Source: Candidatus Saccharimonadia bacterium (GTDB lineage Bacteria; Patescibacteriota; Saccharimonadia; UBA4664). From it: a stretch of 64,000 nucleotides of DNA. Below the pieces are notes generated by a model. It worked only from the letters and a program-made list of their open reading frames with translations, ran no database searches and was not told where the DNA came from. Shown here piece by piece: positions 1,672 through 40,765 of the stretch. The stretch's first letter is position 1; each line of letters begins with the position of its first letter. The stretch spans positions 1,804-65,803 of the forward strand of contig JBBRSS010000004.1 of the NCBI GenBank assembly GCA_038245115.1, in the 5' to 3' direction. Both the position numbers and the translations under genes were made by a program.

Positions 1672-3855
1672 TTATCGCCGCACACGTGAGAGCTTCGATG
1701 GCCACCAAATACTGTGGCCAATGTCGTAAGATAACGCCGGGACCAGGAGTGATCTCACGATTATTGTGTCTAACAACACCCCGAATGCAACTATAAACGC
1801 GAGCTGGGCCAAGAACAGAATCGGTATAATCGCGAGGGCCGCAAAGGTGGCTGCCAAGACCATTCCCGCCGAGGTAATAACACTGCCCGTTACTCCCAGC
1901 CCACGCAATATCCCCGGACGGGTACCAATTTTCAACGACTCCTCGCGCACTCGAGTCATGAGAAAAATATTGTAATCAACGCCGAGCGCCACCAAGAACA
2001 CAAAACCAAATAATGGCACCGTTGGATCTGCCCCAGGGAAGTTTAGTAGATGGTTAAATACCAGAGCCGACACGCCCAAGGTTGCAGCGTAGCTAATAAC
2101 CACACTCAAGATTAGCAGGATAGGCGCCAAGATAGAACGTAGCAATAGCATCAGTATCAGCAAAATTACCACCAGTACGATCGGGATTATCCTGTAGAGG
2201 TCGGCGCGAGCAGTATCGTTACTATCGATAGCGATAGCGGTCACACCGCCAACTTTCACGGTAGAGTCCGTACTCGGTAACGCCTGCCTTAGGTTACGTA
2301 CCACCAGCTCGGCCGCCGCCGAGTCAGCCTGGTCTATTAGGGTGGCATTAATGAGCGCTTTGCCATCAACAACTTTGGGTGCTGGACGATTGGAGGCCGT
2401 GGGGTCGACCGGTCCAGCGTAAATGTAGGCAGCCCCGATGCCGGCGGTGCCCCCGACCGCTTTGAGAGTATCCTGAGCCTTGGCTTCATCGGTAATAATA
2501 GCCACCGGACTGCCCGATCCGGCGTCGAAATGCTTGCCAAGCGCCTGCTGCCCGTCAACCGCCTCCGACTTTGACAGAATCAGGGCGGTTTGGGAGACGC
2601 CGCTGGCTTTGAGTTGCGGCAAGCCCAAAATACAGGCCCCTAGAACAGCCAAAGCGACCAGCCAAGTCGTCCGCGGTCGACGCGCAATTAGGCTGCCAAC
2701 TCCCCTCCAAAAGCCGGGAATGCCCTCAAGCCCAGTTGCATTGTTTGTGGTATTCGCATGCGGGTGGGCGAGATTAATTTTGGGCGTTAGCGGCCAGTAT
2801 GCCTTGCGTCCAAAGGCAAACAGTAGCGCCGGCAGCAGCGACATCGCGGCCAGGAATGAGAAGAAAATGCCGATGGCGGCAATCGGACCCAGGCTGCGGT
2901 TGGAATTGAGGTCAGAGAATAATAGGCAAAGCAGGGCCAAAATTACCGTTGCGGCTGACGCGGCTATTGGCTCTATCGAGTTTTTTATGGCATGCATAAT
3001 CGCTACCCATTTACTCTCGACTGTTTCCAGGGCTTCACGATAACGAGCGCAAAGCAACAGTGAGTAATCTGTCGCTGCGCCGATCACCAGTATGGATAGA
3101 ATGCCCTGGCTCTGCCCGTTGAGTTTAATCCAGCCCCAACTAGCCATGAAGTAGACCAGTAATATTGCAGCAGTAAGGGCGAACATGGCAGTAAACAGAA
3201 CCACAAAGGGCAGTATTATTGATCGGTAAACCAAGAGCAAAATAACAAAAACCGCCCCAATAGCTACCAGTAACAAAATACCGTCAATTCCGCCGAAGGC
3301 AGATACGAGGTCGGCGGTTAGTCCCGCCGGGCCCGTTACGTATCCAACAGTCCCATCTGGCGTATTGGCGCTCACTTGCTTACGTAGCTCCTTTACAACC
3401 ACGCCCACATTGTTGGTATCAGCCACGGGGACGATATATTCTACGGCCAAACCGTCTACCGATGGTATCGGACCCGCCACCGCTGTAGACTGTCCCGCCG
3501 GAGCTGACTGAACTCCGCTAACTGAGCCCAAATTCACGCCCAGCTTCACCAACTGAGGCAGTTGTGACGGAGTAATTTTGACGGGGGAGGTTACTACTAC
3601 AATTGCCGGAATAGATTTGGAGGCCGCAAACTTAGCTTGAACAGATTGGACTTTGGTACTCTCGGCGCTCGCTGGCAAAAACGATGCCTGATCATTGCTC
3701 GACACCGATTTGAGCTTGCCGAAAGTCGGCCCTCCTACACCTGCCGCAATAAACCACCCAACTATAACAATTGCCGGCAGCACAATTCGCACCCAACGGG
3801 CGGGTCCGTTATTGGGCATTGGTTTCACAGCTTCTCGTTTTGGTGAATGTGGCAT
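1672..3855 (-). CDS. MMPL-family (RND superfamily) membrane transporter
   Basis: 727 aa with two 6-TM bundles, each followed by a large extracytoplasmic loop. Carries the MMPL-typical GVDYNIFLMTRVREE signature. Confidence 0.8.
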   Translation of the reverse strand: MPHSPKREAVKPMPNNGPARWVRIVLPAIVIVGWFIAAGVGGPTFGKLKSVSSNDQASFLPASAESTKVQSVQAKFAASKSIPAIVVVTSPVKITPSQLPQLVKLGVNLGSVSGVQSAPAGQSTAVAGPIPSVDGLAVEYIVPVADTNNVGVVVKELRKQVSANTPDGTVGYVTGPAGLTADLVSAFGGIDGILLLVAIGAVFVILLLVYRSIILPFVVLFTAMFALTAAILLVYFMASWGWIKLNGQSQGILSILVIGAATDYSLLLCARYREALETVESKWVAIMHAIKNSIEPIAASAATVILALLCLLFSDLNSNRSLGPIAAIGIFFSFLAAMSLLPALLFAFGRKAYWPLTPKINLAHPHANTTNNATGLEGIPGFWRGVGSLIARRPRTTWLVALAVLGACILGLPQLKASGVSQTALILSKSEAVDGQQALGKHFDAGSGSPVAIITDEAKAQDTLKAVGGTAGIGAAYIYAGPVDPTASNRPAPKVVDGKALINATLIDQADSAAAELVVRNLRQALPSTDSTVKVGGVTAIAIDSNDTARADLYRIIPIVLVVILLILMLLLRSILAPILLILSVVISYAATLGVSALVFNHLLNFPGADPTVPLFGFVFLVALGVDYNIFLMTRVREESLKIGTRPGILRGLGVTGSVITSAGMVLAATFAALAIIPILFLAQLAFIVAFGVLLDTIIVRSLLVPALSYDIGHSIWWPSKLSRVRR

Positions 3856-3967
3856 AAAATTTTAACTTTCAGGCTCTTATAACTCCACAATTTTAGTCCA
3901 TGTCGTGATCTAAAGTAAAACAGGCGCAGTTGCGTGGCACTAGCTAGGTTTCGGCGAGCAAATGACC

Positions 3968-3983
3968 TGTGATCTTAATCACA
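3968..3983. promoter_or_regulatory. Perfect CRP-family palindrome TGTGATCTTAATCACA in the divergent MMPL / cytochrome-b-like intergenic region
   Basis: TGTGA-N6-TCACA read directly from the sequence. It sits 86 bp upstream of the 4069 start and about 113 bp upstream of the 3855 start. Confidence 0.45.
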
Positions 3984-4068
3984 CTGTACGGCACAGCATA
4001 AGTGGTATATTTAACAAAATAATAATGACGCCGCTCGCGAGTTTCGCTCGTCGGTCGCCAAGGAACAA

Positions 4069-5478
4069 ATGGCTAAACGCAATTCTTCTTCCAGACCAAT
4101 TCGCACTGCCCTGCAAAATCTCATGATTCGCGATGTCCCGTCCTATGCCAACAAGTTCGCCTATTCGCTGGGTTTTCTTTCGGCCGTCTCATTCTTTTTG
4201 CTAGTTGCCACCGGCATTATTATGGCTATGGCCGGGCCTCATTGGTGGATAACCAGCTCCTTAGGGCAGTATCTGCGCAGCTTCCATCTCTGGGCTACCC
4301 AAGCCTTCGTCGTATTTATCCTGCTGCATTTAACGATTGTATTTCTAACGTCAGGCTACAAAGGCTCCCGCAAATTCACCTGGGTGCTGGGCGTCTTGAT
4401 GTTCTTCTTTGCTCTAGCCGAAGCCGAATTCGGTTACGTATTGCGTGGAGATTTCTCCTCTCAATACCGCAGCCTGCAGGGTTCCGACCTCTACAACGGC
4501 AGCGGTATAGGCTGGGTTCTCAACAACCTCAACACCGGTCAAGTCATGGGCATTCACATTGCAGTATTGCCGCTGACCTTAATTGTCCTCATTCTGGCCC
4601 ATTATTTTCTTGTGCGGGTCCTTGGTATTGGCAAGCCGTCACCGGCCGCCGACGCTTACCCGATGGTCAAAGCGAATCACGGCTTACTATTTTGGCGCGG
4701 CGGTACCGTAATTGCGCTGGTGGCGGCCTTGGCCTTTGCTTACCCTTCGCCCTATTTGGCGCCGCTGACTATCAGCAAGATTGCCAGTGACGATCCGGCG
4801 CTAATTTCGCAAACCCTCGTTAAGGAATTTGACGGCACATCCGACACCGCCACCTATAAAAACAATATTGCCCCGTACACGTTTAATTCGCGGTCCGTCT
4901 ATATCGAGGCCCCCTATACGCAGCTTAAGGCTACCCAGACCACTCCTAGCCAATTGAAGCTGTTCCTGGCACAGCCAGCCGAGGTTCAAAAGACGCAGCT
5001 TGATGCCGCCACGGCGTTTTATGCTGCCGACCCAGTGAGCAAAACGCTGCCCAAGGGCAACCAGGCCATCGCCGTAGTCGACAGCCTTACGACCATGGCA
5101 AAAAGCGGCCTCTACGAAGCCGCTCTGCGCGACAGCAACGGATCCGGCTACCAAACTACTTATGTGGTCAGGTTCTTGTCTGATACTGGTGTACCCGAAG
5201 AAACCGCCACTAGTATGAATATGACCACAGATCAATACGGCATGGTTCGCGAAGAGGCCAACAGCCAAGCACCCGGCGCTTGGTGGCTGGCACCAATCGG
5301 GTTGCTCAACCACACCGTCCTGGCCAAAGATGAGGACAACGGCGACCGCGACGGTGCTATCATTATTGGCACCTCCTTGCTTCTGTTGCTGGCCTTTCCC
5401 TTTATTCCGTTCCTAAACCGGCTTCCTGAGGTGTTGCGTATACGCAAGCTGTTTTGGCGCAAACCAAGCTCCAAGTAG
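4069..5478 (+). CDS. Di-heme cytochrome b N-terminal-domain protein (b6 type) fused to a roughly 200-aa extracytoplasmic domain between two extra TM helices
   Basis: Helix B carries H-x13-H (FHLWATQAFVVFILLH) and helix D carries H-x14-H (GIHIAVLPLTLIVLILAH), which is the b6-type spacing. RKFTWVLGVLMFFFALAEAEFGYVLRGDFSSQ matches the cytochrome b TW..G....AF.GYVLPWGQMS block. The quinol-site C-terminal domain is absent, replaced by a TM, a soluble domain and a final TM. Confidence 0.65.
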   Translation: MAKRNSSSRPIRTALQNLMIRDVPSYANKFAYSLGFLSAVSFFLLVATGIIMAMAGPHWWITSSLGQYLRSFHLWATQAFVVFILLHLTIVFLTSGYKGSRKFTWVLGVLMFFFALAEAEFGYVLRGDFSSQYRSLQGSDLYNGSGIGWVLNNLNTGQVMGIHIAVLPLTLIVLILAHYFLVRVLGIGKPSPAADAYPMVKANHGLLFWRGGTVIALVAALAFAYPSPYLAPLTISKIASDDPALISQTLVKEFDGTSDTATYKNNIAPYTFNSRSVYIEAPYTQLKATQTTPSQLKLFLAQPAEVQKTQLDAATAFYAADPVSKTLPKGNQAIAVVDSLTTMAKSGLYEAALRDSNGSGYQTTYVVRFLSDTGVPEETATSMNMTTDQYGMVREEANSQAPGAWWLAPIGLLNHTVLAKDEDNGDRDGAIIIGTSLLLLLAFPFIPFLNRLPEVLRIRKLFWRKPSSK

Positions 5479-5540
5479 TTATCGCAAGGTTCTCCTGTCC
5501 TTCTCATCTAATTCTAAGCAAATCGTAGTACATTTGGCTC

Positions 5541-5993
5541 ATGAAAAAACTCTTACTAGGTGCATTTGTTGTCGGAAGCTATATCATATATAGCTTCCAT
5601 CAGCGCGGGGAGGGATCAGCGGCCGTGGTGCCGCCATCTATCCAATCCACGCCGCCCGCCTCAGGGGCTACTGCCACTCCAGGTGCTGCCTCTACGCCTG
5701 CTGTTGCCTATAAGGACGGGCAATATACCGGCCAGTCTGCCGATGCCTACTACGGCTACATTCAGGTAAAAGTGACGATCTCCGGGGGTAAACTGTCCAA
5801 CGTTGAATTCTTGCAATCTCCCAGTGATCGATCCACCTCGGTGCGAATTAACTCTCAAGCCATGCCCTACCTCAAACAGGAGGCCATACAGGCTCAGAGC
5901 GCCGGCGTAGACGGTGTTTCTGGCGCCACCGATACCAGCCAAGCTTTCATCCAGTCCCTAACATCTGCGCTCAAAGCCGCACAAGCAGCTTGA
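5541..5993 (+). CDS. Membrane-anchored FMN-binding-domain protein (FMN_bind), predicted ApbE flavinylation substrate
   Basis: N-terminal TM (LLLGAFVVGSYIIYSF), a Pro/Ala/Thr linker, the YKDGQYTG FMN_bind start, and the flavinylation motif VDGVSGAT (Thr codon at 5928-5930). Confidence 0.75.
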   Translation: MKKLLLGAFVVGSYIIYSFHQRGEGSAAVVPPSIQSTPPASGATATPGAASTPAVAYKDGQYTGQSADAYYGYIQVKVTISGGKLSNVEFLQSPSDRSTSVRINSQAMPYLKQEAIQAQSAGVDGVSGATDTSQAFIQSLTSALKAAQAA

Positions 5994-6733
5994 AACAGAC
6001 CCGACAAATAATGGGTATGCCGGTGACGCTTATTGTCGAGGATGAAACTGCCTCCGCAGACATATTTGATCAAGCCTATGCTTATTTTACGAAGGTCGAT
6101 CAAGCCTACAGCCCGTACATCGCCACCAGCGAAGTCTCGCGAATTAACTCTGGCCTGCCCGAATCTGATTGGAGCCCCCAAATTACCGAGGTCGCGCAAC
6201 TATGCCGCGACACCTCCACTGCCACCGATGGCTATTTCGACGCCTGGCATCACGGCAAATTCGATCCCTCCGGTATCGTCAAGGGCTGGGCTATCAATAA
6301 TGCCGCCAAGCTATTGAGCAGCCTTGGTTGTCAAAATTATTACGTTGAAGCGGGTGGCGACATTCAGGTGAGCGGTTTTAACGCTTCGCACGAACCTTGG
6401 CATATTGGCATTCGCAACCCGTTTGATCGCCGGCAGAACGTCAAGGTGGTCTCGCTTAGTACCCAGGGAATTGCCACCTCGGGGCTTTATATCCGCGGCG
6501 CACATATATACAACCCACACGATGATAAAGCGCAACTTTCCGAAGTCGCTTCTCTGAGCGTCATCGGGCCAAATATTTACGAAGCCGACCGCTTCGCCAC
6601 CGCTGCTTTTGCAATGGGCCCTGCCGGCATCAATTTTATCGAGTCGCTGCCGGGCCTAGAGGCTTATATGATAAATAAGTCAGGCCAGGCGACGCTCACA
6701 AGCGGCTTCGAGCAGTATGTGAGGGCTAATTGA
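5990..6733 (+). CDS. apbE: ApbE-family FAD:protein FMN transferase (short form with no signal peptide)
   Basis: MGMPVTLIV, FDPSGIVKGWA, AGGDI and NPHD blocks of ApbE. TTG start in a TTGA overlap with the upstream stop. 247 aa beginning directly at the conserved MG.P block. Paralog of 13712..14449. Confidence 0.7.
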   Translation: MKQTRQIMGMPVTLIVEDETASADIFDQAYAYFTKVDQAYSPYIATSEVSRINSGLPESDWSPQITEVAQLCRDTSTATDGYFDAWHHGKFDPSGIVKGWAINNAAKLLSSLGCQNYYVEAGGDIQVSGFNASHEPWHIGIRNPFDRRQNVKVVSLSTQGIATSGLYIRGAHIYNPHDDKAQLSEVASLSVIGPNIYEADRFATAAFAMGPAGINFIESLPGLEAYMINKSGQATLTSGFEQYVRAN

Positions 6734-8247
6734 TGAAATATCTCGATAAATTCCTCGACCGCATCACCATGTACCATTTGTTGGTCTATTACTTGTACGC
6801 GCTTCTGGGTGCTGCCATGCTATTGAGTGCAGTTGGCGCCTTGGCATATAATCCGCTGGCAATCGCTATTTCTGCCGGTTATTTAGTAGCGGTTTGCCTG
6901 GTAGCCAACCGTGTCTTTGCGGCCATCTTTAAAGCCCCAAGCAATCCTGAGTCATCCCTCATTACTGCCCTCATTTTGGCTTTAATTATTACGCCGCTAG
7001 CCTCTATCCAGAGCCTGGTATTCTTAACTGCCGCCGCCGGGCTCGCTATTGCCTCAAAGTATTTACTGACCATCCGGGGACGGCACATTTTTAACCCCGC
7101 CGCAGTGGCCGTAGCACTAACGGCGGTGGGCGCCGGCGAATCTGCCAGCTGGTGGGTGGGCAGCGCGGCTCTAGCTCCGGTGGTGATCATTGGCGGCATC
7201 ATGTTAGTACGCAAGGTCAGGCGGGTCCAGATGGTGGCGCTGTTCATTATCACTGCCGTGGTCGCTACGTCTATATTAACCATCATCAGCCAAGGCAATG
7301 TCGTCGGCGAAATCCAAAAAACCTTCCTGCAGTCATCATTGCTCTTTCTTGCATTTGTGATGCTCACTGAGCCGTTGACCTCGCCCGCACAAAGTCGTCA
7401 TCAACGCTGGTATGCCATATTGGCCGGGGTACTCTTTCCGCCCCAGATTCATTTGCTGTCGCTCTATTCCACGCCCGAACTTGTGCTGCTAATTAGTAAC
7501 ATCTATGCCTATATCGTTAATCCCAAGGTCAAGCTGTTGCCTTTGCTCCAAAAAAAGATTTCTTGGGGTCCGAATACTGCCGATTTTGTCTTTGCCCTCG
7601 ACCAGCCGATAGATTATTTGCCGGGACAATATATGGAATTTACTTTGCCGCACTCCAAACCGGACTCTCGCGGCAGCCGGCGTTACTTTACACTCGCGTC
7701 GTCACCAACTGAAAATAATCTTCGCTTGGGCGTTAAATTCTATCCCCGAGGCAGTACATTCAAACAGGCACTTCGCAACATGGGCAAGACTACGCCCTTC
7801 GCTGCGGCCCAGTTGAGTGGCGACTTTGTTCTCCCCAACGACTCTACCCGCAAACTCGCCTTCGTCGCCGGCGGTATCGGCGTGACACCATTTAGGAGTA
7901 TGATCAAATACTTGTCCGACACCGACGACCCCAGATCTGTGACCTTATTGTATTCCGAGCGGACCGCGGCCGATTTGGCGTACGTTGATGTATTCACGGC
8001 CGCCCAAGCCAAACCTGGGACCAAAATTGTCTATACCCTCACCGATGCCAACACAGCGGTACCGACAGGCATGCAGGCTGGGTTCATTACTGCCGAAATT
8101 ATTCAAGCCGAAATTCCTGACTACAAAGACCGTCTTTTCTACATTTCCGGGTCTCATTCTATGGTAAGTGCTATGCAGTCAGCCCTAGGCGAGCTCGGAG
8201 TATCTAAGCACAATATTAAGATTGATTTCTTCCCCGGCTACGTTTAA
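6733..8247 (+). CDS. Fusion of a polytopic membrane domain (NqrB/RnfD-like, HIFNPA motif) with an FNR-type FAD/NAD(P)-binding oxidoreductase domain
   Basis: N-terminal ~270 aa with about 8 TM and GRHIFNPAAV. C-terminal RRYFTLASSP (FAD RxYS/T motif) and AFVAGGIGVTPF (NAD GGxGxxP). TGATG overlap with apbE. Confidence 0.6.
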   Translation: MKYLDKFLDRITMYHLLVYYLYALLGAAMLLSAVGALAYNPLAIAISAGYLVAVCLVANRVFAAIFKAPSNPESSLITALILALIITPLASIQSLVFLTAAAGLAIASKYLLTIRGRHIFNPAAVAVALTAVGAGESASWWVGSAALAPVVIIGGIMLVRKVRRVQMVALFIITAVVATSILTIISQGNVVGEIQKTFLQSSLLFLAFVMLTEPLTSPAQSRHQRWYAILAGVLFPPQIHLLSLYSTPELVLLISNIYAYIVNPKVKLLPLLQKKISWGPNTADFVFALDQPIDYLPGQYMEFTLPHSKPDSRGSRRYFTLASSPTENNLRLGVKFYPRGSTFKQALRNMGKTTPFAAAQLSGDFVLPNDSTRKLAFVAGGIGVTPFRSMIKYLSDTDDPRSVTLLYSERTAADLAYVDVFTAAQAKPGTKIVYTLTDANTAVPTGMQAGFITAEIIQAEIPDYKDRLFYISGSHSMVSAMQSALGELGVSKHNIKIDFFPGYV

Positions 8248-8266
8248 TTGGTGGCCCACTGTAACC

Positions 8267-8665
8267 TTACTTATCGCGCCGGTGATCAATTCGCTCACCA
8301 AAAACTTGTGCATCCTGGCCAGCTGGGTAGCCACCCTGCATAGTCTTTTCTTCGGCGCCCGCAACATCTAGCGCAACTCCGCCCGAAGACCTCAGGACAA
8401 GGTTAAACACAAAGCCGTTCACGTAACCAATCAACCATCCGATGGCAAAGTAGACAACGGGTAACACAAACAGTGACAAGGCACCGATCGTCATACCCAT
8501 AAGCAACCCCTGTATCAAACTATCGGTGGCATTCGTGTACGCAATTGTCCCGCTAAACAAATACATTATTGACACTACCAGACCAATAATCGCACCAAAC
8601 ACACCCTCAAACATCGCTACTGTTGATGGCTTAATTCCTGTAACCATTACCTCTCGTTCATTCAT
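8267..8665 (-). CDS. Hypothetical small membrane protein (3-4 TM)
   Basis: ORF of 132 aa with hydrophobic helices, convergent with the upstream redox module. Confidence 0.4.
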   Translation of the reverse strand: MNEREVMVTGIKPSTVAMFEGVFGAIIGLVVSIMYLFSGTIAYTNATDSLIQGLLMGMTIGALSLFVLPVVYFAIGWLIGYVNGFVFNLVLRSSGGVALDVAGAEEKTMQGGYPAGQDAQVFGERIDHRRDK

Positions 8666-8841
8666 AATTCCGTACTCCTTATACCCAAAATTCTAAGCCT
8701 CCTCCAAGGCGCTAGACATTGGAAGATCATCCATGAATTCTGCACATCCGAAGCATTATTTTCGACAATACTAGGCTCCCGGTGGGCATTACCGGGTGCG
8801 ACCGTTTTCGTCCAGTTAGGCCTGCTAACATATATTCGCCC

Positions 8842-10884
8842 TTAGGCAGCGGCGGTCAGCGCAGGCGCCGCAAACTGGCTATTGTATAGCGAAGCGTAGA
8901 AACCGTCCCGGTATATAAGCTCCTCGTGAGTGCCCTGCTCCACAATATTGCCATCCTGCATTACCAGTATTAAGTCGGCGTTTCGGATCGTCGACAGCCG
9001 GTGCGCAATCACAAAGCTAGTCCGGCCCTTCATGAGCCGCTCCATGGCAGCCTGAATCATTATCTCCGTACGAGTGTCAACCGAGCTTGTCGCCTCGTCG
9101 AGGATCAACATGGGGGTGTCGGCTAACATGGCACGCGCAATCGTAATCAACTGCTTCTCGCCCTGAGAGATATTGTCTGCTTCCTCGTTGAGCATCATCT
9201 TATATCCGCCGGGCAGAGCGCGAATGAAGTGGTCGGCATGCGCCGCTTCTGCTGCCTCAACCACTTCCTGGTGAGTAGCCTTGGATTTACCGTAAGCAAT
9301 ATTGTCCTCGATTGTGCCATTAAATAACCAAGTGTCTTGCAGAACCATGCCAAATAGGCGTCGCACATCCGAGCGCTTCATCTCGCGGATATCAACACCA
9401 TCCATCCTGATACTGCCTTCGCTAACATCGTAAAATCGCATGAGCAGGTTTACGATTGTCGTCTTGCCGGCTCCCGTCGGGCCAACGATCGCCACCCGCT
9501 GACCCGGTCGAATAGCCGCATTCAAGCCCTTGATGACGGTTTTATCTGGGGTATAGCCAAAGACCACATTATCAAACTCAACGGCGCCCCTGACCTTGTC
9601 GATCGCGACGGGACTAGCTGCCTCCGCGACCTCTTCGTCCTCATCCAAGAATTCAAATACTCGCTCGGCCGCCGCTGCCGTAGACTGCAATACGTTAGCA
9701 ATGTTGGCAGTCTGGGCAATTGGCTGGGTGAACTGGTTCATATATTGAATAAATGCCTGAATATCACCGATGTTGACCTTGCCGTTAATTGCCAGCCATC
9801 CGCCTAACACCGCCACCGCAACATATCCTAAATTGCCCACGAATTGCATTATCGGCATCATTAACCCGGAGAGAAATTGTGACCGCCAAGCACTTCCGTA
9901 CAGCTCGGTATTAATCGAGCGAAATTTCCCAACTGAGCGCTTTTCACCGTTAAATGCCTTCATGACGGTATGGCCCGATAGCATCTCTTCCACGTGGCCG
10001 TTTATCTTGCCGAGAGACACCTGTTGGGCAACAAAATAGCCCTGTGACTTTCCGACGATCAGCTTTATTAGCACCATGCTAACCGGTAGCACCAACAGCG
10101 CGACCACCGTCATTTGCCAGCTAATCGTCAGCATAATAATCAGGATGCCGATTATGGTTGTCACCGAGGTTACGATCTGGCTCAGACTTTGGTTCAGGGT
10201 TTGGCTGACGGTATCGACATCGTTGGTCACCCGGCTCAGGACTTCGCCGTGCGTACGGTTATCAAAATATCGCAGCGGCAAGCGGCTGATTTTCTCGGAA
10301 ATATCGCGGCGTAAGTTAAAAGTTACCTTTTGTGATACGCCGGACATTATCCAGCCTTGAATGTAGCTAAAGAGGGCGCTAATGACGTAGAGTCCCACCA
10401 GCAACTCCACTAGCTTGGCGATGCCGCCAAAATCGATCGTTGGCCGTTTGGACAGGTTTAGGGTGGCAATTTTATTGAGCTCTTTGGCGGGAATTCGCTT
10501 GATATCACTTGCCGGCATCAGTTTAATCAACTGGGCCCCGGTCATACCCGGCGGAATATGCATGCCGGCAGGTAGTTTTCGCATCACTTGGTCGTAAACC
10601 ATCCCGTCTATATAACCGGTAGCAACTTTATTGGTGACGTTGCCCAATATTTTTGGACTGACTACCGCAAAAATTGTACTGGCAATCGCAAATATTAGCA
10701 CCGCCACAATCGATAATCTAAATGGCCGCAGGTATTTCAGCAGGGTTCGCATTGTTCCCTTGAAATTCTTTGGTTTCTCGGCCGGCCCGCCCATCATTGG
10801 ACCTCGTCCCATCCCCATTCCTAATGTTGCGGGAGGAGGGCTTTTGGGAGTTCGCGGTGCCGAGTTGGAGTGATTATTGCTCAT
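8842..10884 (-). CDS. ABC exporter, fused permease/ATPase (type I, MsbA-like), heterodimer partner 2
   Basis: 6-TM domain plus NBD with Walker A GPTGAGKT, signature ISQGEKQ and Walker B ILDEATS. 4-nt overlap with the upstream ABC gene. Confidence 0.85.
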   Translation of the reverse strand: MSNNHSNSAPRTPKSPPPATLGMGMGRGPMMGGPAEKPKNFKGTMRTLLKYLRPFRLSIVAVLIFAIASTIFAVVSPKILGNVTNKVATGYIDGMVYDQVMRKLPAGMHIPPGMTGAQLIKLMPASDIKRIPAKELNKIATLNLSKRPTIDFGGIAKLVELLVGLYVISALFSYIQGWIMSGVSQKVTFNLRRDISEKISRLPLRYFDNRTHGEVLSRVTNDVDTVSQTLNQSLSQIVTSVTTIIGILIIMLTISWQMTVVALLVLPVSMVLIKLIVGKSQGYFVAQQVSLGKINGHVEEMLSGHTVMKAFNGEKRSVGKFRSINTELYGSAWRSQFLSGLMMPIMQFVGNLGYVAVAVLGGWLAINGKVNIGDIQAFIQYMNQFTQPIAQTANIANVLQSTAAAAERVFEFLDEDEEVAEAASPVAIDKVRGAVEFDNVVFGYTPDKTVIKGLNAAIRPGQRVAIVGPTGAGKTTIVNLLMRFYDVSEGSIRMDGVDIREMKRSDVRRLFGMVLQDTWLFNGTIEDNIAYGKSKATHQEVVEAAEAAHADHFIRALPGGYKMMLNEEADNISQGEKQLITIARAMLADTPMLILDEATSSVDTRTEIMIQAAMERLMKGRTSFVIAHRLSTIRNADLILVMQDGNIVEQGTHEELIYRDGFYASLYNSQFAAPALTAAA

Positions 10885-12680
10885 ACGACCCCTCCGCCCG
10901 CCAGTGCGCCGCCAATATTGTCATCGTAAGACACGTCCCCCAGGGCCTTGGCTAGCTCGCCTTCAGATAATTGGGACGAGGCTATTTCGCGGTAAACCGC
11001 ACAGGTCTTAAGCAACTGGGTATGCGTTCCTTGGCCGACAATGTTACCACCATCAAGCACAATAATCTTCTCGGCCTGAATGATTGTGCTAATTCGTTGC
11101 GCCACAATTATCACGGTTTTGCCGGCCGTTTCATGCCCGAGGGCCTGCCGCAAGTTGGCATCCGTTTTAAAGTCCAACGACGAGAAGCTGTCGTCGAAGA
11201 TATATATCTCGGGCTTCTTGGCTAGTGCTCGGGCGATAGCCAATCGCTGTTTTTGACCACCCGAAACATTAGCGCCCCCCTGGGAAATCGGGCTCTGGAA
11301 CCCTTGCTCCAACTCACCAATAAATTCTGACGCTTGCGCAGTCCGAGCGGCATGCTCGACCTCAGCTTGGGTTGCCTTAGGATCGCCGTACCTAATGTTG
11401 TCCTCCACTTTACCCGAAAACAGCACGGCTTTTTGCGAAACATAGCCAATTCTGGCGCGCAGGTCCTCTTGCAGCATGTCCCGAATATTAACCTTGTCGA
11501 CCAGAATGGACCCCCCAGTAGCATCATAAAAGCGGGGGATTAGATTGATGAGGGTGGATTTGCCACTGCCGGTGCTCCCAACTAAGGCTGTTGTCTGTCC
11601 TGGTATGGCAGTAAAACTAATATGATGAAGCACAGGCTCTTCTGCCCCCGCATAACCAAAACTTACGTCCCGAAACTCGACCAGACCCTTGCCGATAGGC
11701 GTTCGTACCGGACGCTTTGGATCTTTGATGGTCGCTTCGGTATCTAGCACCTCGGCGACTCGATGGGCCGAAACCGATGCCCGCGGCACCATAATGAAGA
11801 TAATCGAAATCATCAGGAAAGCAAAAATAGCCTGCATGGCGTACTGCATAAATGCCAGCATGTCGCCGATCTGCAGGCTGCCCGTGTCTATCTGCCGCGC
11901 CCCCACCCATACAACTGCCACCGATGTTAGGTTCAAGATAAGCATCATGGCGGGCTGCATTATTACCATTAGCCGGTTCACAAAGAGGTTAACGTCGGTG
12001 AGTTCTTGGTTGGTTTTTTTAAATTTATGTTCCTCATAAGCTTCTTTGTCGAACGCCCGTACTACCCGAAGCCCAGTCAGAATCTCGCGTGTTACCAGGT
12101 TGAGCCGGTCGACCAGCTGCTGTAGCTGAGTAAATTTTGGAATTGCCGTGATAAACAATACTGTGATGATACTTATGAGGGTGAGAATCGCGATTGCCAT
12201 AATCCAGGCCATCGAAGGTGCCAGCTGGTAGGCCTTAATTATCGCGCCGATGCCCATGAACGGCGCCATCAATGCCAACCTCAACAGCATACCTAGCACC
12301 GTCTGGATCTGTTGAATATCGTTGGTGCAGCGGGTAATTAGTGAGGCGGTCGAAAAGGTGTTGAACTCGATTAGCGAAAAGCTCTCAACCTTCGTAAACA
12401 CTCTATCGCGTAGCTGCATGGCGAAGCCGGTCGCCACGCGTGAGGCCAAATACCCGACGCCAACCATACAGGCACCACCGAACAGGGCAATCAGCAGCAT
12501 TAGTAGGCCATTGCGTAAAATTAGGCTGCCGTCTTGGCCGACTATTCCCTGATTAACAATCTTGGCCATGTAGTCGGGCAGCGCCAATGTCGCGGTCGTT
12601 TGCCCATACGTTAAGATCAACATTAGGATCAGCAGCCATTTATACGGAGCGAAGTATTTGAGTAGTTTCAGGGTCTGCAT
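10881..12680 (-). CDS. ABC exporter, fused permease/ATPase, heterodimer partner 1
   Basis: Walker A GSTGSGKST, signature VSGGQKQRLAIARAL and Walker B IYIFDDSFS. Confidence 0.85.
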   Translation of the reverse strand: MQTLKLLKYFAPYKWLLILMLILTYGQTTATLALPDYMAKIVNQGIVGQDGSLILRNGLLMLLIALFGGACMVGVGYLASRVATGFAMQLRDRVFTKVESFSLIEFNTFSTASLITRCTNDIQQIQTVLGMLLRLALMAPFMGIGAIIKAYQLAPSMAWIMAIAILTLISIITVLFITAIPKFTQLQQLVDRLNLVTREILTGLRVVRAFDKEAYEEHKFKKTNQELTDVNLFVNRLMVIMQPAMMLILNLTSVAVVWVGARQIDTGSLQIGDMLAFMQYAMQAIFAFLMISIIFIMVPRASVSAHRVAEVLDTEATIKDPKRPVRTPIGKGLVEFRDVSFGYAGAEEPVLHHISFTAIPGQTTALVGSTGSGKSTLINLIPRFYDATGGSILVDKVNIRDMLQEDLRARIGYVSQKAVLFSGKVEDNIRYGDPKATQAEVEHAARTAQASEFIGELEQGFQSPISQGGANVSGGQKQRLAIARALAKKPEIYIFDDSFSSLDFKTDANLRQALGHETAGKTVIIVAQRISTIIQAEKIIVLDGGNIVGQGTHTQLLKTCAVYREIASSQLSEGELAKALGDVSYDDNIGGALAGGGVV

Positions 12681-12683
12681 ATA

Positions 12684-13106
12684 TTACTTAGAATCCTGCA
12701 GTAGTCCTAGGATACGGTCAAGTTCCTGCATATCGCTACGGTTTAATTTATCCAACATTCCCCCGGCGTGCCTCATTTTTTCCTTGAGTAACTGCACTAG
12801 CTTCTTCCCGGCTTCGGCCGACAATGCCAGGTAAATACTGCGACGGTCGTTCTCGTCCGGCGTTCGTATGAGCCAGCCGGATTCAACCAACCGATCGGCC
12901 AGCAGGGTAGCCGAGCCGGGAGAAATGAGCAACTCATCCGCCAGCTCGCGCATCCGTATCGGCTGTTCGTTCTTGATGAAGAACAGTGCCTGCATTTGGT
13001 GCATGGTGAGGTTCTCCACGCCGGTGTCTCCGGCGCTTTGTTGTCTCATCCGGCGGTTGATCTGGTACCAGTGGGTCAATATTGAACGCTTGAGATCTTC
13101 TTGCAT
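12684..13106 (-). CDS. MarR-family transcriptional regulator, first gene of the marR-abc-abc operon
   Basis: wHTH block LTMHQMQALFFIKNEQPIRMRELADELLISPGSATLLADRLVESGWLIRTPDENDRRS. Start taken at the internal Met (MQEDLK...), giving 140 aa. Confidence 0.75.
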   Translation of the reverse strand: MQEDLKRSILTHWYQINRRMRQQSAGDTGVENLTMHQMQALFFIKNEQPIRMRELADELLISPGSATLLADRLVESGWLIRTPDENDRRSIYLALSAEAGKKLVQLLKEKMRHAGGMLDKLNRSDMQELDRILGLLQDSK

Positions 13107-13109
13107 TTG

Positions 13110-13248
13110 AAACCAATATATTACGTTAGCGATACTAATAGTTCGTATATAAAAGTAATATACGCAACTAACCCTCGAATCGTCAATCAATCATTCTTAA
13201 GCCAAACTTTATTCGGTTGACTACTTCAAAATGGGACTATAATGATAA
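13110..13248. promoter_or_regulatory. AT-rich divergent promoter region with dyad repeats (CGTATATAAAAGTAATATACG; TTAGCGATACTAA), candidate MarR operators
   Basis: Inverted repeats read directly from the sequence between the divergent marR and dsbB-like starts. Confidence 0.3.
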
Positions 13249-13707
13249 ATGGTTATGAATAAACTCAACCCCAAGTCAGATAAGCCTCATCTGCCCGTCG
13301 CCGCTATAGTCGCCTGGGTTACCGCCCTGCTCGCCTCGGCCGCCAGCGTTTACTTTATCGAAATCTTGCACAACCCAGTTGCTACATTGTGTTGGGTTGA
13401 CCGAATGTTGGTCTTTTCGCTCCTGCTCGTGCTCACCGTTGGCATTATCGACCGAGACCGGCGCGTCGTGCGTTTTTGTTTCCCGTTTTTGGCCCTGGGT
13501 CTACCGCTGTCTTTCTATCAGCAGCTCGTGCATTGGGACCTCATCCACATCAATCCTCAGGTTTGCAGCATCAGCTATGTTTGTACAACCAAATATTTCA
13601 ATCTCTTCGGCATTATTACTCAAGCCACCCTCTGTTTTGCCGCTTTCGTCATTATTGCCGTGTCGATGTATATGCTGCGGGATCGTCACTTGCCAGCCAA
13701 GCCCTAG
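13249..13707 (+). CDS. DsbB/BdbC-family disulfide-oxidoreductase-like membrane protein with loop-1 CxxC replaced by TxxC
   Basis: Four TM. SVYFIEILHNPVATLCWVDRM aligns to the BdbC PCxLCWYQR block but keeps only one Cys. The second periplasmic loop keeps C-x5-C (CSISYVC) and the YFNLFG block. Confidence 0.5.
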   Translation: MVMNKLNPKSDKPHLPVAAIVAWVTALLASAASVYFIEILHNPVATLCWVDRMLVFSLLLVLTVGIIDRDRRVVRFCFPFLALGLPLSFYQQLVHWDLIHINPQVCSISYVCTTKYFNLFGIITQATLCFAAFVIIAVSMYMLRDRHLPAKP

Positions 13708-13711: not shown

Positions 13712-14449
13712 TTACGGCCGCTCAAACCTGCGAAAACCTTCGGTTAATACTACTCGGCCCTGCTTGTCGATCGACATTGCCTCGTAACCTTGTCTATGTA
13801 AAAACGGTAATGCTTGATCGCCCATGCAAAATGCCGCCGTCGCCAGAGCATCAACTTGGTCAATTGTTGGGCCGATTACGGTTAGACTCACCGGGTCCTC
13901 AACCATCTGCCCGGTTCGAGGATTGTATATATGGTTGCCGCGTTCGTAATTGCCCGAGGTAGCAACGGCCATATTTTTAAGGTAAAGCTTTTTTGCCAAC
14001 TTAGTGGGGTCAAAAGGATGGGCGATCCCGATAACCCATGGGCCTCCGGATGGTCCGTCGCCGCTAATCTGCATATCGCCCCCGGCATTAATGCAGTACC
14101 GGGTGATGTCGCGGCTGTTGAGGAGTCGTGCTGCGCGGTAAATAGCCCACCCCTTAACGTATCCGGACGGGTCGATATGCCCATCTCGTGCCACGTCAAA
14201 GTACCCTTCGGTCAATTTTTTCAAACGGGCGCATTCCTCCAGCACCGCCCGCAAATCATCACTCGATTTCGGCAACTCTAATTCGCCGCGGTTAAGCCGA
14301 CTAACCTCGCTTGTGGGCTTATAGGTACTAAACGCCTCGTCAACCTCGTGGAAATATTCAAATACATCGTCGATGGCGGCGTCCGCCGCATTGCCGTCAA
14401 GCACCTCTAGGGTGATAGGCATACCCATTATATTTTGTGAAACTTTCAT
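13712..14449 (-). CDS. apbE: ApbE-family FAD:protein FMN transferase, second paralog (no signal peptide)
   Basis: MGMPITLEV, HIDPSGYVKGWA, AGGDMQ and NPRTG blocks. Collinear with the 5990..6733 protein at about 40-50% identity. Confidence 0.7.
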   Translation of the reverse strand: MKVSQNIMGMPITLEVLDGNAADAAIDDVFEYFHEVDEAFSTYKPTSEVSRLNRGELELPKSSDDLRAVLEECARLKKLTEGYFDVARDGHIDPSGYVKGWAIYRAARLLNSRDITRYCINAGGDMQISGDGPSGGPWVIGIAHPFDPTKLAKKLYLKNMAVATSGNYERGNHIYNPRTGQMVEDPVSLTVIGPTIDQVDALATAAFCMGDQALPFLHRQGYEAMSIDKQGRVVLTEGFRRFERP

Positions 14450-14458: not shown

Positions 14459-16060
14459 TTGTACAATAACCATATGCACGATACGCCGCTAGAGAACGCG
14501 CAAAAGCTCATTTCGGAAGGAAAATCGACGGCCGAAATAAGGGCTGCTCTCAATGGCGAAAGCTTTGTGCCTTCGCCAGCTGTTGCGCCGCAGGCAAGCC
14601 TCACCCCCGCCGCCTCGAATGCAGCCTCTTCGCCCAAACCCAACGCCTCGGCTTCGCCTCAGCCGCCCGCTTCGGCCCCTCCTGCTCCCGCACCGAAGCC
14701 GATGGTCTACCCGCCGCTGCTGGATACGCCGCTACGGACGGGCGTTCAGGCCCCCAAGCTAGGCTGGCCGCTGATAGTGCTGGCCTGTTTAATACCGGCG
14801 CTCGCAATATCAGTCGATACGCCCTTTGCTGAGCGATTTGGTAGTTTATCGAATGCCCTTATTGCTTTCGGCGACATTACAGGTGTCATTGGCCTGGCGG
14901 CGTACGTTCTCAATTTGGTGCTGGCAACCCGCTTTCATTGGCTGGAAGATTTGTTTGGCGGCCTCAACCGCGCCCTGATAGCCCATCAAGTTTTGGGCGG
15001 CATAGCACTTATTATGCTGCTATTTCACCCCATCCTCACGGCAGCCTCTTACTATTCCTACGGTGTCCAGGCAGTTGCCCATTTTTTTGTGCCTTCGGTC
15101 GCCTATATTGGCACGGCTTTCGGTATTGTTGCTCTCGCGATGATCATCATCTTGTTGGTCCTGAGTTTCTATATCAAAATTGGCTACCGACTATGGCTGC
15201 AAACCCATAAATACCTTGGTCTGGCCTATCTCCTCATAATGCTGCATGTCCTATTGACGCCGAATCGCATCACGGCTGACCCGTTTGTTAAATGGTACCT
15301 GTACCTTCTTCTGGTTGTGGGGGCATTTGCCTTTATTTATCGCACGTTACTGCCAAATATATTCGTCCGCCGGTATCTGTATACCATTGCCGCTGCGCAG
15401 CCCAAAGGCATCGGCGTAGTCGAGGTTACGTTGGCGCCAGTGAACAAATCCGTCCACGTTCGAGCTGGGCAATTTATTTTTGTGACATTCAGTAGCGATG
15501 GGCTATCGTCCGAATCGCACCCTTTTAGCATCTCATCGGGCGAGAACTCCAACCAGCTGATGATCGACGTCAAGTCGCTCGGGTCGTATACGGAAACTCT
15601 CACCCGGCTTCTACCGCATATGGTTGGCATGACGGCTCAGGTTGAGGGAGCATATGGCCGATTTTCGTACCGCAACATTGGGAATTTAAACCAAGTTTGG
15701 ATTGGCGGGGGAATAGGTATAACGCCGTTTCTGAGTATGGCGCAAACTCTCGGATCCGGGCCGTATAATATCGACCTGTATTACTCGGTAAAGACGGCAA
15801 GTGAGCTAATTGACCTCGACACCCTGGCGATCCATCAATCCAACCTACCGGGCCAGGTGTTTCGGACTTTTCCGTTTATCACTGAAACTTACAAGTCGTA
15901 CTTGAGTGCCGGCATCATCAAGAAGAATAGCGGCAATCTCGATAAACGGGACTTCCTCTTGTGCGGCCCGCCCGGCATGATGCAGGAAATCAAGAAGCAG
16001 CTCATAAAGCTTGGGGTCAAAGAAACTCGGATTCACAGCGAAGAATTCTCGCTCGAATAA
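14459..16060 (+). CDS. NOX/ferric-reductase-family flavocytochrome: a 6-TM bis-heme domain plus FAD and NAD(P)H domains, with a Pro/Ala/Ser-rich N-terminal extension
   Basis: TM3 has H-x13-H (IAHQVLGGIALIMLLFH) and TM5 has H-x12-H (THKYLGLAYLLIMLH), the NOX spacing. HPFSISS is the FAD motif and GGGIGITPF the NAD motif. The first ~95 aa are low-complexity. Confidence 0.7.
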   Translation: MYNNHMHDTPLENAQKLISEGKSTAEIRAALNGESFVPSPAVAPQASLTPAASNAASSPKPNASASPQPPASAPPAPAPKPMVYPPLLDTPLRTGVQAPKLGWPLIVLACLIPALAISVDTPFAERFGSLSNALIAFGDITGVIGLAAYVLNLVLATRFHWLEDLFGGLNRALIAHQVLGGIALIMLLFHPILTAASYYSYGVQAVAHFFVPSVAYIGTAFGIVALAMIIILLVLSFYIKIGYRLWLQTHKYLGLAYLLIMLHVLLTPNRITADPFVKWYLYLLLVVGAFAFIYRTLLPNIFVRRYLYTIAAAQPKGIGVVEVTLAPVNKSVHVRAGQFIFVTFSSDGLSSESHPFSISSGENSNQLMIDVKSLGSYTETLTRLLPHMVGMTAQVEGAYGRFSYRNIGNLNQVWIGGGIGITPFLSMAQTLGSGPYNIDLYYSVKTASELIDLDTLAIHQSNLPGQVFRTFPFITETYKSYLSAGIIKKNSGNLDKRDFLLCGPPGMMQEIKKQLIKLGVKETRIHSEEFSLE

Positions 16061-16078: not shown

Positions 16079-17155
16079 CTAGCTTAGTAGATCGGCAACA
16101 AAAATTCCGATGAGGCTGACAAAGAACAGTATCAGTGAGACTCCCACCAGGGCTTTGATCGGCCTCGCGTGCCCGGAGCCAACCAACTTCAGCAGCCTTC
16201 GTCGCAAGACGTATACGGCTGCGGCGAACAGGGCGAAAACACTGCCGAATCCGATTAATATTCCCATTGGCAGAGGTTGTTTTGATGCCGCCGCCGTAAG
16301 CGAAAACTTTTCGCCCCCGGCCGTTCCTTGGACCGTCAGCTGAAACTGGCTCTTGTCGCCTTTGTATGTCACCTGCGCCAACTCTTGGCCCGCCGCAATA
16401 CCGCTAAAGAGCGCATCCCCCTTATCGTCTGTCGGCATAGTTTGGCCGCCCAGAGTCACCGTCGCGGCTACCGCTGGGCTGCCGTTTTTATCTGTGACAT
16501 GAATTAAGACCGTTCCAGGCAAAACCTCGGCCGCGGGCTGAGTCGGGTCGGTTGTTATAGGTTCGCTACTCACTACGGCTGGTGAGGGATTTGCATCTGG
16601 GGTTGCGCCGGGCGATGAGCCGGGTGATGCGTTTGTCGCCGGTGCCGGGGTGGTCGAGGGTGAGCCTGGCTTGGGAGTTGGCACGGGTGTGTGACCTGGG
16701 GCCACCGTTGGTGTCGGCGTGTGGGTTGGTAGGGGAGTTGGAGTGGGTGTGTGACCGGGGGCGGGAGTCGGCGCCGGCGTCGGTACAGGCGTCGGTTTGG
16801 GGGTCGGCACTGGCGTTGGTTTGGGCGTCGGCACCGGTGTTGGCACCGGCGTCGGTACTGGCGTCGGCTTTGGTGTCGGCACCGGCGTCGGCGTTGCGCA
16901 GGGCGTCGCGGTCGAACACGCATTAACACCAGTTGCCTTAAAGCCCCCGAGGACCTCATTTATTAATATTGTCACTCCCGACTTCGGGCCGTTCGATGCC
17001 ATACGGTCAGTATTGCCTGGTGTGCCGCTATATTTCTGAGCCGTCTGATTGATGTTGTATTGGCTTATCAATTCGTAGAGTATTGGCACAGCAAACACCC
17101 CCACCAAAATATAGGATCTGGTTAGGCGGCGCTTTAGGAGTTTTTGTCGCTTCAT
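16079..17155 (-). CDS. Cell-surface protein with a (PTPV/K)n proline-threonine repeat, an Ig-like/CarboxypepD_reg-like domain and a C-terminal LPMG-hydrophobic-RRR segment followed by another TM
   Basis: N-terminal signal anchor, roughly 100 aa of [12 protein letters not shown] repeats, then [28 protein letters not shown]. Start taken at the internal MKRQK. Confidence 0.5.
16768..16905. repeat. Tandem 12-nt repeat (GGCGTCGGCACC and variants) encoding the Pro-Thr-Pro-Val/Lys linker
   Basis: Period-12 repetition visible directly. It generates spurious ORFs on both strands. Confidence 0.7.
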
Positions 17156-17313
17156 TATGATAATACTATCACGCCTATGCTTTCCTCGATATACGCGCTG
17201 ACAAGCAACAATGAGGCTCCCGCGCCGAATAACCAGCAACGGCAGTCGGCAACTGTTTCAGCAATGATTCCAGATACGCTATACTAGTCGCGTACTTCAT
17301 CTCGGAGGCGCCC

Positions 17314-39643: not shown

Positions 39644-40765
39644 CTATCTCGTGTCGATTCCGACTGCTTCGCTGACACTGTTAAAATAATCACGCTTTAG
39701 TAGCTTCACTAGGCCCAAATTTATCTCAGAAATAGATTGTGGACCCTGATATATCATCCCAGTAATAAGCTGAATCAAGCTCGCGCCCAAGCGAATTTTC
39801 CGATAAGCATCTTCGGCAGTAAATACGCCGCCGCAGCCCATAACTAAATGTGTCCGCCCTACGCGTGAGTACACCCGCCTAATTTGTTCGTCGGACATTT
39901 CCTGCTGCACTTTGCCGCTCAGCCCGCCGGTGGGCGGCACATCCGCATCGAGAATATGCGGGTTGTCGCGTGGCTTGGTCAGATTTGAGCATATAAACCC
40001 CTCAATATTGTGGGCTAGAGTCACTTCCAGTAGATGATCCAACTCGATTTCACTCAAATCGGGCGAGAATTTAATAAAAACCGGCTTGGTGTGCTTCTGG
40101 CGGTCGACCGCACTAAGGAGTTTTTCCAACCGCGACGGGTTCGTAAACGGCTGGCCGCCAAAAGTGTTGGGGCAGGAAATATTGATGGTTACATAGGCGC
40201 CCACGCCCATAGTCGCCCGGTAGGCTTTCACGTAGTCGGCCACGCCTGCATCCTCATCCACCGTTGTCTCGGAGTTCGTTTTGGCTACACTAATGCCCAC
40301 GGGAACCGCGAACTTACGCCCTTGAAGTCGCTTGGCTATTGCCTCCGCTCCGTCGTTCATGAGCCCGTAATTCACTACCAGCGATTGGCTTTTTGGCAGC
40401 CGCCATAGTCTGGGCTTGGGGTTGCCGGCGCAGGGCTCGCCCGTAACCGAGCCGATTTCCATAAAACCGAATCCCACAGTAGGGATAAAATCCACTAGGC
40501 GGGCATTTTTGTCGAATCCGGCCGACAGCCCGATGGGGTTCACAAATTTAATCCCCAGAATTGTCTGCTCCAGCATTGGGTGTCGGTACCCGAATGCAGC
40601 CCGAGTTAGGCCCCGTCCCAGACCGTTGCGCCCGATTGCCTCGCCAATTTTAGAGATATTATCATGTACAACTTCCGGATCTTGGCGAAAAAATGCCGGC
40701 TTTAATGCGTGCGTATAGACCGCCGCCTCGAGTTTGTTGCGGGTTAAAATCAAAGTATCTTTCAT
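39644..40765 (-). CDS. pyrD: Dihydroorotate dehydrogenase (quinone), class 2
   Basis: GLSAGFDKN and GFGFMEIGSVT blocks, an N-terminal membrane-association helix. Start taken at MKDTL. Confidence 0.85.
   Translation of the reverse strand: MKDTLILTRNKLEAAVYTHALKPAFFRQDPEVVHDNISKIGEAIGRNGLGRGLTRAAFGYRHPMLEQTILGIKFVNPIGLSAGFDKNARLVDFIPTVGFGFMEIGSVTGEPCAGNPKPRLWRLPKSQSLVVNYGLMNDGAEAIAKRLQGRKFAVPVGISVAKTNSETTVDEDAGVADYVKAYRATMGVGAYVTINISCPNTFGGQPFTNPSRLEKLLSAVDRQKHTKPVFIKFSPDLSEIELDHLLEVTLAHNIEGFICSNLTKPRDNPHILDADVPPTGGLSGKVQQEMSDEQIRRVYSRVGRTHLVMGCGGVFTAEDAYRKIRLGASLIQLITGMIYQGPQSISEINLGLVKLLKRDYFNSVSEAVGIDTR

Follow-up and report, generated by a model that had tools for sequence, protein, structure and literature searches.

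The closest described relatives of the locus studied here are the NQR/RNF-like systems. Méheust et al. (2021; eLife 10:e66878, PMC8238504), in the section 'NQR/RNF-like systems' and in Supplementary file 2, defined them by the fusion of the domains PF03116 and PF00175, assigned to them 127 gene clusters, mainly from Actinobacteria and the candidate phyla radiation, and proposed that they transfer electrons unidirectionally from reduced nicotinamide adenine dinucleotide (phosphate), NAD(P)H, to an extracytosolic flavin mononucleotide (FMN). For Ktedonobacter racemifer, an AlphaFold-multimer model of a two-subunit complex has been presented (Huang et al., 2024; mSystems 9:e00375-24, PMC11334425), and the part of that paper devoted to the complex describes a transmembrane domain without the flavinylation site conserved in NqrB and RnfD, and proposes that the covalent FMN of the partner subunit gains access to the site in the membrane domain where a flavin is bound non-covalently. 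Here we describe a Saccharibacterial gene located at 6733-8247 of a 64,000-nt stretch of contig JBBRSS010000004.1 (hereafter the window, whose numbering is used for all coordinates), which encodes an RnfD/NqrB-like membrane domain fused to a ferredoxin-NADP reductase (FNR)-type domain, and we compare it with 80 related loci from species-representative genomes (L001-L080).

The window gene belongs, almost certainly, to the NQR/RNF-like family. As in the definition given in the passages cited from Méheust et al. (2021), an N-terminal PF03116 and a C-terminal PF00175 domain stand in one protein, and, in keeping with the gene-proximity part of that definition, the ApbE and FMN_bind genes are the two genes directly upstream of it. 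As in the account of the complex by Huang et al. (2024), the membrane domain lacks the flavinylated Thr of NqrB and RnfD, the loop that carries it being deleted. The window fusion shares 49% identity with the proteins of K. racemifer (L057, L067), the species modelled in 2024. The taxa match as well (candidate phyla radiation, Ktedonobacter), and compared with the published passages nothing essential differs; in the lineage of the window alone, a di-haem cytochrome b gene is found directly upstream. In present databases the family comprises 360 clusters (50% identity, E<=1e-30) as against the 127 listed in 2021. The fusion, the absent flavinylation site and the proposed mechanism are hence already in the published sections on this system, and the window gene is one more member.

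The fusion and its two domains were delimited as follows:

6733..8247, plus strand: RnfD/NqrB-like::FNR fusion protein of 504 amino acids, transmembrane subunit of an Nqr/Rnf-like system (PF03116, PF00970 and PF00175; AlphaFold2)
6733..7521, plus strand: membrane domain, residues 1-263, ten helices, both termini cytoplasmic, RnfD/NqrB fold (Foldseek, hhalign, charge pattern)
7522..8247, plus strand: cytoplasmic FNR-type domain for flavin adenine dinucleotide (FAD) and NAD(P)H, residues 264-504 (Pfam, NCBIfam, PDB phmmer, Foldseek, motif conservation)

The preliminary description of this stretch had placed the fusion at these coordinates, and the open reading frame is real and correctly delimited, with an ATG start at 6733 and a stop codon at 8245-8247. 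Three Pfam models exceeded their cut-offs: NQR2_RnfD_RnfE (PF03116; 43.7 versus 27.7 bits), FAD_binding_6 (PF00970, residues 272-342; 24.4 versus 21.1 bits) and NAD_binding_1 (PF00175, residues 377-482; 49.1 versus 22 bits). Pfam, a profile search of PDB sequences and AlphaFold2 models compared by Foldseek thus agree that an NqrB/RnfD-like membrane domain and an FNR-type domain are combined in one polypeptide, as had been proposed. Homologous fusions are abundant in other genomes: more than 6600 homologues were found, for which JGI uses the name 'ferredoxin-NADP reductase/RnfD subunit', and among the 360 representatives of the N-terminal domain most of the top 150 are about 500 amino acids long and thus carry the fusion, making it the dominant architecture. 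An assembly or frameshift error that joined two genes, with HIFNPA present by chance, is therefore a negligible explanation; the same architecture of about 504 amino acids recurs in thousands of proteins from independent assemblies, including the complete genomes AP024096, CP025011 and NZ_CP035758, the AlphaFold2 model of the full-length protein is confident across the domain junction (pLDDT 86.6, pTM 0.84), and we found no point in support of an artefact.

Two conserved motifs of the membrane domain proved informative for its assignment:

7084..7101, plus strand: HIFNPA, residues 118-123, conserved NPA motif at the cytoplasmic start of the short helix 5 (conservation, alignments)
7363..7386, plus strand: LTEPLTSP, residues 211-218, counterpart of the 'TDP' motif of RnfD/NqrB (alignments, invariant columns)

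The N-terminal domain is of the RnfD/NqrB type. When a profile of 41 sequences covering residues 1-262 was searched against all PDB sequences (E<=10), the only matches were RnfD of Azotobacter vinelandii (E 1.2e-3) and NqrB of Vibrio cholerae (E 0.06-0.1), and hhalign against RsxD of Escherichia coli gave E-values of 4e-6 (local) and 2e-7 (global). Since matches of the full-length model in PDB were mostly FNR domains, residues 1-263 were modelled separately (pLDDT 86.7, pTM 0.84), and the top 15 Foldseek matches of this model were all RnfD (TMq 0.68-0.75) or NqrB (TMq 0.53-0.65), with E-values from 1e-6 to 4e-3 and with the RnfD structures 9eri_D, 8ahx_D and 8rbq_D as the best (TMq 0.72-0.75); these were followed only by urea transporters with E>0.2. 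The domain is therefore not a member of an unrelated transporter family, which the preliminary description had named as the outcome that would overturn its assignment. Nor is HIFNPA a coincidence, as it aligns with RNFLNPA at 199-205 of V. cholerae NqrB and with NPFNPA of E. coli RsxD, and F120, N121 and P122 are invariant. The NCBIfam rnfD model scored 28.6 bits against a cut-off of 207. The AlphaFold2 model contains ten membrane helices with both the N and the C terminus inside, so the eight helices counted previously were an underestimate, and from the distribution of charges in the sequence the cytoplasmic side likewise holds both termini as well as the loops 112-121 (R115, R117) and 160-166 (RKVRRVQ).

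The retained RnfD/NqrB fold with its ten helices could point to a redox-driven Na+/H+ pump, in which, as in NQR and RNF, the flow of electrons from NAD(P)H would drive the export of ions, a function compatible with the electron export proposed below. NqrB D346 is an acidic residue implicated in Na+ handling in the NQR mutagenesis literature, and E213 of the fusion, which is aligned opposite to it, is invariant. However, opposite NqrB E144 and D397 the fusion has Asn59 and Asn263/Ser, no homologues of NqrD/E or RnfA/E are encoded nearby, and electrons crossing the membrane outwards would carry charge in the dissipative direction. In our view ion pumping is thus very unlikely.

The preliminary description had also stated that the membrane domain carries no SGAT flavinylation site, and this was confirmed for the family: neither [ST]GA[ST] nor D-x-x-[ST]-x-A-[ST] occurs in the membrane domain of 95 of the 96 members analysed, including the window protein, and the single exception has SGAS at an unrelated position. 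Where RnfD and NqrB have the flavinylated loop, the fusion has a short turn:

7141..7155, plus strand: SASWW, residues 137-141, short extracytosolic turn between helices 5 and 6 in place of the flavinylated loop of RnfD/NqrB (hhalign gap, conserved spacing)

In the global hhalign alignment with RsxD a gap of about 80 residues falls between W140 and W141, opposite RsxD residues 142-221, which include D-G-I-S-Q-A-T, and compared with NqrB the fusion has 21 residues (124-144) in place of 69 (206-274, including T236). Of the 92 members in which both motifs were detected, 91 have an NPA-to-WW spacing of 16 residues. Judging from these alignments, the flavinylated loop of RnfD/NqrB is deleted throughout the family, and the flavinylation motif is absent from the membrane domain because the loop carrying it has been lost. 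We also considered the invariant SAS of SASWW as a cryptic flavinylation site homologous to NqrB T236 and RnfD T187, and rejected it, as it aligns with 'MTSW' of RsxD at the end of the preceding helix; since the motif-bearing loop of RsxD falls within the gap, SASWW is the stump of the loop and not a cryptic site.

Three motifs mark the C-terminal half of the fusion:

7678-7692, plus strand: RRYFT, residues 316-320, FAD motif (motif conservation)
7870-7890, plus strand: GGIGVTP, residues 380-386 (motif)
8227-8244, plus strand: FFPGYV, C terminus of the fusion (motif conservation)

This half is a generic FNR module, which with PF00970, PF00175, GGIGVTP, a variant FAD motif and Tyr503 has the features of the FNR-type flavoprotein reductase superfamily. 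The pattern RxYS/T...GGxGxxP previously assigned to it was only partly borne out: GGIGVTP is present, but a strict R-x-Y-[ST] is absent and replaced by the variant R-Y-F-T (Phe for Tyr), which is kept in 50 of 55 homologues. FNR enzymes usually have a stacking aromatic residue at the position of Tyr503, and in the C-terminal FFPGY(V/A) of the family this residue is invariant. In NCBIfam the domain most resembles flavohaemoprotein, BenC and reductases related to these (E from 1e-24 to 1e-15), and Foldseek with the full-length model returned FNR-type structures, including the FAD domain of NqrF (E ~1e-15). In the suggested comparison with NqrF, the nqrF model (TIGR01941) covered only the NAD part, at 36.2 bits against a cut-off of 295, and a Pfam scan of the fusion detected no 2Fe-2S (Fer2) domain. 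The same scan gave no match to Ferric_reduct (PF01794).

The fusion is the last gene of a three-gene cassette, the other members of which are:

5541..5993, plus strand: NqrC/RnfG-like FMN_bind protein of 150 amino acids (Pfam FMN_bind, E 3.9e-10; FMN-binding domain of PDB 8p2a, E 1.6e-14)
5910-5930, plus strand: DGVSGAT flavinylation motif of the FMN_bind protein, with Thr130 as the predicted attachment residue (motif)
5990..6733, plus strand: ApbE FAD:protein FMN transferase of 247 amino acids, with a TTG start at the Met1 position of its relatives (Pfam ApbE, E 6.6e-40)

The ATG of the fusion gene shares one base with the TGA of the ApbE gene (TGATG), and the start of the ApbE gene in turn overlaps the stop of the FMN_bind gene, so that the three genes are tightly coupled, the fusion gene translationally to the ApbE gene. 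The order FMN_bind, ApbE, fusion is kept in about 74 of the 80 loci, which come from Saccharibacteria/Patescibacteria, Ktedonobacteria (K. racemifer, Dictyobacter, Ktedonosporobacter) and one actinomycete metagenome-assembled genome, and whose fusion proteins are 46-78% identical to that of the window. This linkage bears on the earlier proposal that the fusion is a single-subunit NAD(P)H-oxidising entry point: the sections cited from Méheust et al. (2021) and Huang et al. (2024) put forward the same hypothesis, but the protein does not stand alone, being linked to its FMN_bind partner and ApbE.

The FMN_bind protein consists of an N-terminal KK and hydrophobic membrane anchor (recognised by inspection and charge statistics), a low-complexity linker rich in Ser, Pro, Ala and Thr, and the FMN_bind domain. 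In 74 FMN_bind homologues the mean charge of the anchor flanks is +2.3 on the N side versus +0.7 on the C side, the N side being the more positive in 59 and the less positive in 8, and this positive-inside bias predicts that the domain lies outside the membrane (N-in/C-out). The [ST]GAT core is universal in true FMN_bind partners, and within the window this protein is the only canonical ApbE substrate. In about 26 of 75 partners from loci L005-L080, Gln, Asn or Ser takes the place of the leading Asp of the ApbE motif D-x-x-[ST]-G-A-T (e.g., VQIISGAT, VNIVTGAT), a residue otherwise called 'strictly conserved'.

With moderate confidence, we propose that the cassette exports electrons from NAD(P)H. 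The domain architecture, fold, loop deletion, strict gene linkage and predicted topology have been given above; which cofactors take part, in which direction electrons flow and where they end we infer from family knowledge and from the AlphaFold-multimer model as presented in the published account of the complex. Cytoplasmic NAD(P)H would reduce FAD in the C-terminal FNR domain, from which electrons would move on to a flavin bound non-covalently in the RnfD/NqrB-like membrane domain and then to the FMN that ApbE would have attached covalently to Thr130 of the NqrC/RnfG-like partner. Because the flavinylated loop of RnfD/NqrB is deleted in the fusion, the flavinylated loop of the partner could dock at the place of the covalent FMN of RnfD/NqrB, and from the extracytosolic FMN the electrons would leave for an extracytosolic acceptor. 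Such a system would resemble the RnfC-RnfD-RnfG half of RNF working to oxidise NADH, RnfC being replaced by a simple FNR module.

Several points weigh against this proposal. The cassette ApbE has no leader peptide, neither in the window nor in related loci, where the N termini of homologues read 'MKQTRxxMGMP'; this ApbE and a second one in the window (listed below) both begin at the conserved core (MKQTRxxMGMP and MKVSQNIMGMP, respectively), leaving no room for a signal peptide or lipobox. With the substrate predicted outside the membrane, a leaderless enzyme is awkward for simple extracytosolic flavinylation. The FMN_bind protein could receive its FMN while still in the cytoplasm, or a non-classical pathway could bring ApbE across the membrane. 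Furthermore, the proposed flavin of the membrane domain draws on an analogy with NqrB and its riboflavin, no conserved gene for a terminal acceptor was found beside the cassette among the open reading frames clustered from the 80 loci, and our literature search found no biochemical or genetic study of any member of the NQR/RNF-like family.

In that clustering the neighbours of the cassette were lineage-specific only, namely a two-component system, a methyltransferase, DedA/VTT, MFS and ABC exporters. In one Saccharibacteria subclade (L010, L013, L015, L017, L025, L043, L060, L061, L069, L072, L077, L079 and L080) a class-I methyltransferase, an unannotated protein of about 331 amino acids and a DedA/VTT membrane protein follow downstream of the cassette on the same strand, and a histidine kinase and a response regulator precede it in L010, L013, L015, L017, L025 and L034, as well as in L005. 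The cassette and these flanking genes may form an extended, regulated operon.

In the window, the cassette is preceded by a cytochrome b gene:

4069..5478, plus strand: di-haem cytochrome b of 469 amino acids (Pfam Cytochrom_B_N_2 and Cytochrome_B; H73-x13-H87 and H163-x14-H178)

Besides a b6-like core of four helices, the protein has one additional helix, an extracytoplasmic domain (about 200 amino acids) and a final helix. Its gene lies 62 nt upstream of the FMN_bind gene on the same strand and probably shares an operon with the cassette, while its membership of the module is uncertain. A scan of 3700-8900 for promoters and terminators gave counts not above shuffled expectation. The cytochrome b family is kept across Saccharibacteria at 55-87% identity; only in the window and its three close relatives L001-L003 (at least 75% identity) does it adjoin the cassette. 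In L072 the two are 5-7 kb apart, and in three loci that belong to two further cytochrome b clusters of Saccharibacteria it stands alone in unrelated contexts. No Rieske or cytochrome c partner was seen near it. With so narrow a distribution of the adjacency, cytochrome b is not a component at the level of the family, and we rejected it as a conserved partner. It is quite unlikely that in this lineage the module has gained cytochrome b as a third part, forming a flavin-to-haem chain from NAD(P)H to a membrane or extracellular acceptor, and that, separately, the leaderless ApbE flavinylates the exported partner before translocation. The passages on the NQR/RNF-like system in Méheust et al. (2021) and Huang et al. 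(2024) mention neither a cytochrome b, nor a leaderless cassette ApbE, nor a second locus of the kind found about 6 kb from the cassette, where an ApbE gene is divergent from a NOX-like gene. This locus and further genes of the window are:

8267-12680 and 12684-13190, minus strand: small membrane protein of 132 amino acids without Pfam match, convergent with the fusion gene, then two MsbA-like half-transporter ABC exporter genes and a MarR regulator
13249-13707, plus strand: DsbB/BdbC-like four-helix disulfide oxidoreductase (below cut-off)
13712-14449, minus strand: second ApbE, 245 amino acids, leaderless, divergent from the NOX-like gene
14459-16060, plus strand: NOX-like/'MsrQ-like' protein of 533 amino acids with Ferric_reduct (PF01794), FAD_binding_8 and NAD_binding_1 domains (Pfam)
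39644-40840, minus strand: quinone-dependent (class 2) dihydroorotate dehydrogenase (TIGR01036, 282 versus a cut-off of 200 bits)

By its predicted domains, the NOX-like protein is a bacterial NAD(P)H-driven di-haem conduit, and together with the fusion cassette this gives two different predicted conduits from NAD(P)H to the outside within 10 kb. No FMN_bind gene adjoins the second ApbE/NOX-like locus, and the N-terminal ~100 amino acids of the NOX-like protein are rich in Pro, Ala and Ser. About a dozen other loci also have ABC exporters of the MsbA-like type close to the cassette; we rejected an identity of the two downstream exporters with CydDC, since their best matches were MsbA-like and both scored far below the CydC and CydD cut-offs. 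Four long open reading frames of 386-584 amino acids had no Pfam match at E<=1e-5 (16079-17239 and 19605-21209 on the minus strand, 57691-58935 and 62050-63804 on the plus strand), of which one, at 19605-21209, may be spurious and lies partly over the 5' extension of the phosphoglucose isomerase frame.

The dihydroorotate dehydrogenase, the DsbB/BdbC-like protein and the cytochrome b suggest, from their predicted functions, that this Saccharibacterium uses a membrane quinone. Saccharibacteria have been described as lacking quinone biosynthesis, and use of a membrane quinone would thus be of note. These quinone-linked genes, with the b6-type di-haem character of the cytochrome b, lend some support to a minimal NAD(P)H:quinone oxidoreductase, a 'mini-NQR', in which electrons would end on quinone in the NqrB-like domain and the FMN_bind protein would be an intermediate or accessory carrier rather than the exit, in keeping with the established view, also held in the ApbE review literature, that in Na+-NQR it is NqrB that bears the last cofactors before ubiquinone. 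On the other hand, NqrA and the N-terminal part of NqrB contribute to the quinone site of NQR as well, and neither has a counterpart here, a strictly conserved extracytosolic FMN partner would be needless if membrane quinone were the sole target, and the cytochrome b adjoins the cassette only in the closest relatives. Quinone reduction is on balance unlikely, and electron export to an extracytosolic acceptor remains the reading we prefer.

If so, the family may allow both the reduced-genome Saccharibacteria and the large-genome Ktedonobacteria to send electrons from NAD(P)H across the membrane by a very simple route of three genes, which could serve to reduce or take up iron, to keep the redox balance of the cell envelope or to interact with a host. 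As a natural minimal version of the RnfD/NqrB electron conduit, the fusion could moreover help to dissect how NQR and RNF work. What is left of interest beyond the published description lies in the biochemistry of the family, the cytochrome b, the leaderless ApbE and the second ApbE/NOX-like locus.

RnfD of RNF (9eri_D, 8ahx_D, 7zc6_D) is the best structural match of the membrane domain (TMq 0.68-0.75) and shares with it the NPA and T(D/E)P motifs. The logic of RNF with RnfC and RnfG is also the same, leading from a cytoplasmic NAD(H) module through a membrane subunit to an extracytosolic subunit with covalent FMN. In contrast to RnfD, the fusion has lost the loop of about 80 residues with the covalent FMN, and the NAD(H) module, which in RNF is the FMN/Fe-S protein RnfC, is here the fused FNR domain; RnfA, RnfB and RnfE are missing. 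Compared with a canonical RnfD/NqrB subunit, the fusion thus has the fold, lacks the covalent FMN site (D-x-x-[ST]-x-A-T) and does not stand in a six-gene operon: around it are the genes for cytochrome b, FMN_bind, ApbE, the small membrane protein and the ABC exporters, and among the scanned open reading frames of the window there was no RnfA/E, RnfB, RnfC, NqrA or NqrD/E and no rnfABCDGE or nqrABCDEF operon. With NQR, the membrane domain shares the fold of NqrB (7xk3, 8a1t), whereas the T236 flavinylation loop and the N-terminal extension of NqrB are absent; the C-terminal domain shares the FNR fold of the FAD/NADH domain of NqrF (TMt ~0.72), whereas the 2Fe-2S ferredoxin domain is absent and the FNR domain has more in common with flavohaemoglobin and BenC-type reductases. 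The NOX/ferric-reductase (FRE) family, e.g., NOX of Streptococcus pneumoniae (8qt6) and the window gene at 14459-16060, follows the same principle of a membrane conduit joined to a cytoplasmic FNR-type FAD/NAD(P)H domain that exports electrons, and its FAD motif H-P-F-T resembles the R-Y-F-T of the fusion. In the fusion, however, the conduit is of the flavin-type RnfD fold and not the six-helix di-haem Ferric_reduct domain, which its neighbour at 14459-16060 carries.

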